From contig JAUNKE010000001.1 of the NCBI GenBank assembly GCA_030532905.1, positions 8,601 to 72,600 of the forward strand: a stretch of DNA of 64,000 nucleotides, written 5' to 3'. Positions 49,572-50,035 of this stretch are shown here, piece by piece. How positions within the stretch are numbered: position 1 is the stretch's first letter; each line of letters begins with the position of its first letter. Made by a program: the position numbers and the translations under genes. The notes below the pieces were generated by a model. The model searched no databases. It was not told the origin of the DNA and saw only the letters and a list, made by a program, of their open reading frames with translations. Origin of the DNA: Peptostreptococcaceae bacterium. Lineage in GTDB: Bacteria; Bacillota; Clostridia; Peptostreptococcales; Filifactoraceae.

Positions 49572-49600
49572 TTGAACTTGTCTCCGTTTTGTGATAAGAT
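49572..49600 (+). promoter_or_regulatory. Sigma-A-type promoter (TTGAAC-N17-TAAGAT) driving the cobalamin riboswitch
   Basis: The sequence ttgaacttgtctccgttttgtgaTAAGAT lies about 20 nt upstream of the aptamer. Confidence 0.55.
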
Positions 49601-49614
49601 GAGTTCGTAGCGAA

Positions 49615-49740
49615 TTACTTAATACTTGGTTGTAGGTGCAAGGGAAACAGGTGTAAATCCTGTACGGTGCCGCCGCTGTGTTGGGGAGAGAGCATTCATA
49701 ATGTCACTGCGAAAGCGGGAAGGCGAATGTAATCGTTGAT
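49615..49740 (+). promoter_or_regulatory. Cobalamin (AdoCbl) riboswitch aptamer
   Basis: The sequence GGTGCAAGGGAAACAGGTGTAAATCCTGTACGGTGCCGCCGCTGTGTTGGGGAGAG...GTCACTGCGAAAGCGGGAAGGCG matches the conserved cobalamin-riboswitch core, including the B12-box region. Confidence 0.8.
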
Positions 49741-50035
49741 CCTAAGTCAGAATATCTATCTACAGCTATCACCAAAAACTCTACGGATTATAGAGGGTGT
49801 GTTGAATGATTGAATTCAGACCTTCTGTCGTTGTGTCCTTTTGGTACGATGTCGAAGGTTTTTTATTTAGGTCACCAAACTCCAAGTGACCTTCGGGCAA
49901 TCCATCCTACTCCAAATGGAAAGCCCTAACACACATAACCGTAAAGAGATGTTTAAGTAGATATGTACGCATATCGTAATTCGCAAACATCCCTTCCAAA
50001 TGGGCAGACCTTACTCCTTGGTCTGCCCTATTAGT

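Follow-up and report, generated by a model that had tools for sequence, protein, structure and literature searches.

A cobalamin (vitamin B12) riboswitch with no coding sequence (CDS) behind it lies in a stretch of 64,000 nucleotides from an uncultured Peptostreptococcaceae bacterium (GenBank assembly GCA_030532905.1, contig JAUNKE010000001.1, positions 8,601 to 72,600; hereafter the window). The locus is most likely the gene of a B12-regulated small regulatory RNA (sRNA) of a new type, present in a few uncultured Peptostreptococcaceae. We consider it probable that the segment 49572-50038 forms a gene of its own, for a non-coding RNA (ncRNA) whose length depends on B12 and whose tail acts in trans, preferably by base pairing. 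Five variants were compared, those of the window and of the related loci L003, L004, L005 and L098, and the comparison of their sequences establishes the aptamer, the alternative pairings of its expression platform, a conserved and covarying tail, a lack of coding capacity and the fact that the unit does not depend on the gene behind it; what we infer is that the tail acts in trans, what it targets, where the RNA ends and how it responds to the ligand.

Using cmscan, we searched the whole window against Rfam and obtained a single match, to the cobalamin riboswitch family RF00174, complete, on the + strand and with 75.3 bits against a gathering score of 31.5 bits. The orthologs in L003, L004, L005 and L098 score 73-81 bits against the same model, and compensatory changes among the variants are found in the aptamer P1 and P6 extension. 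An earlier inspection of the window without database searches (the sequence-only reading) had recognised the aptamer on this strand and placed it at 49615-49740; the strand holds, whereas the end does not, since the closing strand of P1 reaches about 49770. The promoter TTGAAC-17-TAAGAT is present where that reading had put it and its position is conserved in all relatives. It matches the consensus at 8 of 12 positions, which is under the threshold of a simple promoter scan; its hexamers, TG and spacing are kept in L003, L004, L005 and L098, the variants being TTGAAC or TTGAAA for the first hexamer and TGnTAAGAT, TACAAT or TAAAAT for the second. From this constitutive-looking promoter transcription would start near 49607, and the 5' 170 nt of the transcript would fold into the cobalamin riboswitch.

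Behind the aptamer, the CTCTA..TAGAG hairpin and the GAAGG-T6 site described earlier are both present, as a P13-like hairpin and as the 3' part of a terminator (T1), respectively. The segment UAGAGGGU, consisting of the 3' half of P13 and three further bases, can pair instead with the 5' strand of T1 (ACCUUCU). All five variants have the mutually exclusive P13, AUAGAGGGU:ACCUUCU antiterminator and T1: the folding energy of T1 lies between -15 and -23 kcal/mol, U5-6 AUUU comes after it in each case, and the antiterminator forms in each case once the 3' strand of T1 is omitted from the folding. T1 is kept despite a platform sequence which is merely 66-80% identical to that of the window in L004, L005 and L098. 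As modelled, the platform is a transcriptional OFF switch of standard design, in which P13 would serve as anti-antiterminator and the CGG of its loop would kiss the L5 loop UGCCG (CGG:CCG). With cobalamin bound, P13 would be held, presumably by the kiss with L5, leaving ACCUUC free to form T1, so that transcription would stop at the U run of T1 and yield a short RNA of ~260 nt. Without cobalamin, the UAGAGGGU:ACCUUCU antiterminator would let the polymerase proceed to a second terminator, hairpin D, yielding an RNA of ~430 nt; the B12 response, both transcript ends and both product sizes are those predicted by this model.

The tail after T1 appears from the alignment as ~170 nt of structured, conserved, non-coding RNA. 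Its structure was derived by single-sequence folding and RNAalifold. The sequence-only reading had seen two further strong hairpins here; strong hairpins are indeed present, but there are four of them downstream (A, B, C and D). Hairpins A and B stand in tandem with loops of 9-10 nt and carry the motif ACUCCAA twice, ~30 nt apart; the stem of B is rewritten in L004, L005 and L098 with the loop motif unchanged, and G-U pairs in A are consistent with the + strand. The first 25 nt of the unpaired block AACACACAUAACCGUAAAGAGAUGUUUAAGUA, namely AACACACAUAACCGUAAAGAGAUGUU, are identical in the window, L003, L004 and L005, and the remainder shows two differences in L005 and further changes in L098. 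The second unpaired block, which follows hairpin C, is invariant in all five variants, save that L098 has 2 extra nt inserted and L005 a single substitution. Hairpin D folds at -19 to -22 kcal/mol, precedes the convergent gene and probably forms the 3' end of the RNA; L004 and L098 have U7 behind it, the window the weaker tract UAUUAGUUUA. ACUCC is thereby an invariant element of three hairpin loops, as ACUCCAA in A and B and as UACUCCU in D, the latter resembling an anti-Shine-Dalgarno sequence. Together with the C/U-rich CAUCCCUUCC of the second block, these motifs are invariant in 5/5 variants and unpaired in the covariation-supported structure. No Rfam family was found in the tail at E <= 10, the only match at that level being a chance partial hammerhead match within an ABC gene.

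The conserved unit extends from the promoter to the last hairpin (49572-50029) and conservation stops abruptly after D. Identity to the window in L004, L005 and L098 is 82%, 84% and 83% for the aptamer, 81%, 80% and 70% for the tail (49867-50029), 26%, 59% and 33% for the DNA past the last hairpin and 42%, 47% and 35% for four-fold degenerate sites of the neighbouring gene kce; in L003, the tail is 98% identical and the kce four-fold sites 85%. Because the tail is 70-81% identical against 35-47% at four-fold sites, purifying selection constrains it to about the same degree as the aptamer. The five variants were then realigned with a covariance model built from the tail. On this realignment 97.3% of the cells are paired and 11 of 31 pairs show double-sided changes, mostly in A, B and C, while loops are unchanged across variants; when the 3' partner was shifted by 1-3 columns as a control, 29-40% of cells are paired and 0-2 pairs are double-changed. 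The + strand is fixed as that of the RNA because several of the G-U pairs, read on the opposite strand, would turn into A-C mismatches and because U tracts follow T1 and D.

In addition, the 5'-terminal GCGAAUUAC and the GUAAUUCGC element of the second unpaired block could form a duplex of -13.4 kcal/mol, which one of 200 shuffles equalled; the helix is without covariation, since neither side varies. It is possible that it closes the 5' and 3' parts of the molecule, in which case it could form in the full-length RNA only; it could act as a closing helix, in protection of the 5' end or as a post-transcriptional switch. Another long-range pairing proposed by RNAalifold, 49776-49806 with 49926-49949, was rejected, as 54 of 200 shuffles were as good.

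The conservation of the tail also bears on two other readings. The locus could be a decaying remnant, that is, the riboswitch of a deleted B12-related gene with leftover leader or junk, and the restriction of the element to a few close lineages and its absence from near relatives would fit this view. However, a downstream CDS occurs in no lineage, the tail is far better conserved than neutral sites, its stems show compensatory changes and it has kept its own terminator, so that decay is a highly improbable explanation. Alternatively, the riboswitch could gate a small protein, encoded by the open reading frame (ORF) at 49806-49889 or by another micro-ORF. The 27-codon ORF exists in the window as had been claimed, with an AGAGGG site upstream of its ATG, and it is present in L003 as well; yet L004 encodes a different product of 16 codons, the ATG is gone in L005 through a 1-nt deletion and the ORF is absent in L098, again with loss of the ATG. 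Moreover, the ORF spans T1, and the minus-strand ORFs of the tail change frame between variants although the nucleotides are kept. With no in-frame conservation among the ORFs of the five variants on either strand, the small protein was rejected, and we hold this to be the most improbable of the proposals considered here.

A genome scan with Kce placed the window among uncultured Filifactoraceae/Peptostreptococcaceae. The riboswitch lies divergently beside kce in the window and in four further lineages (L003/L120, L004, L005 and L098-L107), and in all of these the unit is complete, from its promoter down to the last hairpin. Adjacency of kce and the RNA is kept in 5/6 of the closest groups, and both outer flanks are variable. 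No riboswitch was found beside kce in Proteocatella (L006-8) or upstream of kce in relatives whose Kce is 85-92% identical (L084-L096, L118). In a metagenome scan the invariant 20-mer CACATAACCGTAAAGAGATG gave only a chance match in a high-GC coding region (L083), the covariance model of the tail had no match in ~115 other loci totalling 1.7 Mb, and blastn of plasmids and phages gave none. As far as searched, the RNA is confined to a narrow clade of uncultured Peptostreptococcaceae. Two further observations were made at these loci. Upstream of kce in L108, a lineage without the RNA, positions 2640-2760 (-) hold a direct repeat of ~45 nt (…gcgcaggcaaaacaatggagctcgcaagc…), and L004 has a tetrahydrofolate riboswitch (RF01831, 64.5 bits) together with a tRNA gene at 873-983 (+), ~9 kb from the unit.

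Downstream, the + strand of the window has no ORF of more than 39 codons between 49778 and 50035 according to the ORF list, and the next gene after the RNA is a convergent ABC-2 permease gene whose end is at 50036. The description of the riboswitch as an orphan is borne out: no conserved ORF precedes 50036, no CDS follows the riboswitch in any lineage examined, and the comparison of synteny, which had been suggested for finding a normal downstream B12-related gene, was negative and favours the orphan reading. In the window, L003 and L120 the convergent gene encodes the ABC permease, in L004 and L005 a 279-aa protein and in L098 P-II. Since the 279-aa gene is orthologous to 55849-56763 of the window, the block 50036-55848 is extra in the window.

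These flanks decide on an antisense RNA of the AspocR type, which the sequence-only reading had offered and in which read-through past D would produce a B12-tied antisense transcript of the ABC immunity operon. The + strand does run head-on into the 3' end of this operon, and the run of U behind D is weak in the window as in L003. However, the convergent gene differs by lineage, the block 50036-55848 being absent in L004 and L005 and replaced by P-II in L098, and the RNA is conserved regardless. Furthermore, D is a G+C-rich 9-bp hairpin followed by U7 in L004 and L098, D and the end of conservation both come before the convergent gene, and there is no functional link of B12 to a lantibiotic-type ABC transporter. 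An antisense function is thus very improbable, whereas the riboswitch-controlled sRNA of the same reading is upheld, the tail being conserved, covarying and equipped with its own terminator whatever gene follows.

Table. Features of the riboswitch RNA gene and of the divergent kce gene (positions refer to the window).
Feature	Position	Strand	Description
RNA promoter	49572-49600	+	-35 TTGAAC 49572-49577; 17-nt spacer; TG 49592-49593 (extended -10); -10 TAAGAT 49595-49600
5'-terminal GCGAAUUAC	49610-49618	+	Invariant in 5/5 sequences; perfectly complementary to GUAAUUCGC 49976-49984
Cobalamin riboswitch RF00174	49617-49777	+	cmscan 75.3 bits, E = 9.8e-17, model positions 1-189 of 189
P13-like hairpin CUCUA-CGGAUUA-UAGAG	49779-49795	+	Stem invariant; mutually exclusive with antiterminator; usual P13 position
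Antiterminator	49790-49828	+	AUAGAGGGU 49790-49798 paired with ACCUUCUGU 49820-49828; folding of five variants
27-codon ORF, not a gene	49806-49889	+	Not conserved in relatives
Terminator T1	49818-49864	+	Stem 49818-49861; U6 run 49859-49864
Hairpin A	49869-49892	+	Loop CAAACUCCAA, ACUCCAA invariant; both-side changes in 3/7 pairs
Hairpin B	49895-49926	+	Loop CCUACUCCAA, ACUCCAA invariant; both-side changes in 6/9 pairs
Unpaired block AACACACAUAACCGUAAAGAGAUGUUUAAGUA	49928-49958	+	Nearly invariant; alignment of variants
Hairpin C GAUAUG-UACG-CAUAUC	49960-49975	+	Both-side changes in 2/6 pairs; 100% of cells paired
Unpaired block, invariant	49976-50001	+	Holds GUAAUUCGC 49976-49984 and C/U-rich CAUCCCUUCC 49988-49997
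Terminal hairpin D with U-rich tail	50002-50038 (hairpin 50002-50028)	+	GGGCAGACC-UUACUCCUU-GGUCUGCCC; 9 bp, G+C-rich
Divergent kce gene	48644-49465	-	Pfam BKACE, E = 8e-110
kce promoter TTGATA-17-TATAAT	49521-49549	-	11/12 consensus positions (promoter scan)

On the other side, the divergent BKACE/kce-like gene on the opposite strand, noted before as a B12-related neighbour, encodes a protein passing the NCBIfam equivalog Lys_ferment_KCE (3-keto-5-aminohexanoate cleavage enzyme) with 438 bits against a cutoff of 382; it is identical to MDO5094958.1 of a Peptostreptococcaceae metagenome-assembled genome. The kce promoter and that of the riboswitch RNA stand back-to-back with their -35 boxes 22 bp apart. 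Kce acts in lysine fermentation, downstream of the adenosylcobalamin (AdoCbl)-dependent lysine 5,6-aminomutase. Because the pathway depends on AdoCbl, an RNA made only in the absence of B12 would be a sensible repressor of lysine fermentation, and the RNA may repress the Kce pathway under B12 lack. In the mechanism which we propose, the long RNA would expose an effector tail composed of the twin ACUCCAA hairpins, the two invariant single-stranded blocks (one with CAUCCCUUCC), hairpin C and the terminator with its UACUCCU loop. Its C/U-rich, anti-Shine-Dalgarno-like loops and single strand would pair with GGAG-type ribosome-binding regions of target mRNAs and shut down functions that are useless without B12, kce being the obvious candidate member of such a regulon. 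Pairing of the tail with the 5' untranslated region (UTR) of kce was assessed by windowed duplexes, as global duplexfold permits huge loops and is uninformative; in all four lineages CAUCCCUUCC pairs with the kce 5' UTR at -12 to -17 kcal/mol, compared with means of -12.6 to -15.5 kcal/mol for shuffled UTRs. As a separate observation, the motif GAAAACCUUUUUU at 49485-49500 (-), in the kce 5' UTR near the predicted mRNA 5' end, also occurs in L003, L004, L005 and L098; it is kept although the remaining kce UTR diverges and could be a regulatory site of kce.

The position of the RNA beside kce might alternatively reflect a local effect in cis, with the divergent back-to-back promoters or a shared operator coupling the initiation of kce and the RNA product being secondary. 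The adjacency kept while the outer flanks vary and the closeness and conservation of both promoters would agree with this. Nevertheless, the riboswitch acts after initiation, so that promoter occupancy would be unchanged by B12, the architecture of the kce promoter is only partly kept in lineages without the RNA, and selection on the 170-nt tail is left unexplained. We therefore regard a cis effect as very unlikely.

Several findings weigh against a trans-acting, base-pairing sRNA. The pairing of CAUCCCUUCC with the kce 5' UTR is no better than that of shuffles and its site moves in L098. A target search, which covered the 64-kb window, found no target, and neither UUGGAGUU nor ACUCCAA is enriched in the window; the sole intergenic UUGGAGUU there lies in the loop of the prdR terminator. 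An occurrence of AACTCCAA in Proteocatella was rejected, lying inside a coding gene. Relatives with a 95%-identical Kce (L097, L108-117) are without the RNA, which is consequently dispensable. The variants amount to about four independent sequences from one narrow clade, which makes the covariation statistics thin, and pairs were counted on an alignment that had been fitted to the structure. The B12 response and the ends of the transcript are predicted from sequence. Finally, the window and L003 have a weak U tract behind D, so that termination at D may be leakier in the window genome, with some read-through into the ABC operon possible.

A different mode of action in trans would be that of a protein sponge, a functional analogue of the Enterococcus faecalis sRNA EutX, in which hairpins A and B form a platform for a dimeric non-ANTAR regulator; without B12 the regulator would be sequestered and the B12-dependent pathway kept off. 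Adjacent hairpins with rewritten stems, identical 7-nt loop motifs and near-constant spacing are what such a platform would look like, and the layout of riboswitch, internal terminator, dual hairpin and final terminator is exactly that of EutX and its Listeria monocytogenes counterpart Rli55 (PMC5821096). On the other hand, the genes nearby include no candidate RNA-binding regulator, only regulators of the OmpR type, which bind DNA, and no second copy of the dual hairpin was found in any leader within the 1.7 Mb searched. The loops of 9-10 nt are not ANTAR hexaloops with A1 and G4, and the additional invariant single-stranded blocks are left unexplained. A sponge is accordingly a possibility that we consider rather unlikely, and base pairing is preferred over it because it explains the long invariant single-stranded blocks as well. 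Tentatively, and with the odds similarly against it, the 170-nt tail may represent a new effector class by which B12-dependent amino-acid fermentation (lysine via KamDE and Kce) is tied to B12 status. This would happen either through a sponge of a non-ANTAR dimeric RNA-binding regulator on the twin ACUCCAA hairpins, or through pairing of the invariant 49610-49618 with 49976-49984, by which tail and riboswitch would make up one large RNA whose seed accessibility depends on B12 after transcription.

Beyond the RNA gene, the ~5.8-kb block 50036-55848 comprises two ABC-2 permeases, one ABC ATPase, the OmpR-type response regulator and the histidine kinase of a two-component system, and a 331-aa ORF without a Pfam match. 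It separates the RNA gene from the 304-aa gene at 55849-56763 and is missing in L004 and L005, which points to an inserted or deleted module of the lantibiotic-immunity type. At 59019-63759 (+), another two-component system stands ahead of an ABC ATPase and a permease of the FtsX type and makes up with them a Bce-like module for sensing peptide antibiotics; in L005, the ortholog of this two-component system is close to the RNA. On the kce side, positions 42472-47364 (+) encode a 1630-aa protein with DUF4011, an AAA_11/AAA_12 helicase, a REase_MTES_1575 nuclease and DUF3320, a large helicase-nuclease of a type known from defence islands; in L120 the corresponding side of kce has crotonase and CoA-transferase genes in its place. 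A complete D-proline reductase (prd) cluster occupies 15071-23137 (-), with the racemase PrdF, PrdE, PrdD, PrdB, PrdA, the RnfC-like PrdC and PrdR, an activator of sigma-54 type. An in-frame TGA at 17604-17606 (...LLTAG-U-GTCHRS...) marks PrdB as a selenoprotein, owing to which it is split in the ORF list, with a spurious + strand ORF (17370-18032) on top of it. A bacterial serpin at 34944-36101 (+) and a HTH-Fic/DOC protein at 6699-7598 (-) are uncommon in Clostridia and unrelated to the RNA.

To our knowledge, few riboswitches control a trans-acting ncRNA instead of the gene that follows them, the B12 examples considered here being EutX/Rli55 and AspocR. AspocR of Listeria is reportedly a B12-riboswitch-controlled antisense RNA to pocR. 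The element of the window is like it in that the transcript under the B12 riboswitch is non-coding and is directed toward a gene of opposite orientation, and unlike it in having a terminator before the convergent gene, which moreover varies, so that overlap is not conserved. SreA and SreB are said to be Listeria S-adenosylmethionine (SAM) riboswitches which still lead a normal operon and whose short terminated form acts in trans. With these and other terminated riboswitch fragments the element would share a riboswitch-derived RNA acting in trans, as proposed here, but it leads no operon and has a selected extra domain downstream of the terminator. Base-pairing sRNAs with C-rich or UCC loops are also found in Firmicutes, as in the hairpins of Staphylococcus aureus RNAIII and in RsaE/RoxS. 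The similarity lies in several exposed C/U-rich motifs (here ACUCC three times and CAUCCCUUCC) complementary to a Shine-Dalgarno-type GGAG; there is no homology, the pairing is putative here, and control is by a riboswitch rather than a transcription factor. We know of no riboswitch control of sRNAs of the RNAIII or RsaE/RoxS type.

The closest resemblance in layout is to EutX and Rli55. In EutX, the long B12-free form sequesters the ANTAR regulator EutV through a dual hairpin (PMC5821096, PMC8237595). The ANTAR substrate is a pair of mini-hairpins with an A as first and a G as fourth nucleotide of their hexaloops (PMC3369931). Like EutX and Rli55, the element has its own promoter, a 5' cobalamin riboswitch and no CDS behind it (PMC5821096, PMC8237595), and the internal and terminal terminators read from its sequence would give, as in those RNAs, a short form with B12 and a long form without B12 that carries tandem hairpins and ends at the second terminator. 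Unlike in those RNAs, the tail has no ANTAR substrate and no sequence or Rfam similarity to anything known, and the gene lies beside kce. The five-variant motif scan found no conserved tandem pair of A..G.. hexaloops, only isolated 3-bp chance hairpins, the real hairpins of the tail having loops of 4, 9 and 10 nt, and Pfam scans of 46 large ORFs, all the best non-overlapping ones of the 64-kb window, found no eut, pdu or ANTAR genes. The element is thus EutX-like in architecture and not a member of the EutX family. EutX could in principle sit anywhere in the genome, and a 2018 review of ethanolamine utilisation pointed to possible EutX-like sRNAs outside eut loci in Clostridium species (PMC5821096), a question which the element touches though it fails the ANTAR test. 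It combines the EutX/Rli55 architecture with an unrelated effector domain under clear selection, outside a eut locus and beside a gene of B12-dependent lysine fermentation, and offers a candidate mechanism by which Clostridia that ferment amino acids might turn off catabolism requiring B12 when the cofactor is lacking. This suggests that riboswitch-gated sRNAs are a reusable design, in which one B12 sensor, as in EutX and Rli55, is joined to different output modules.

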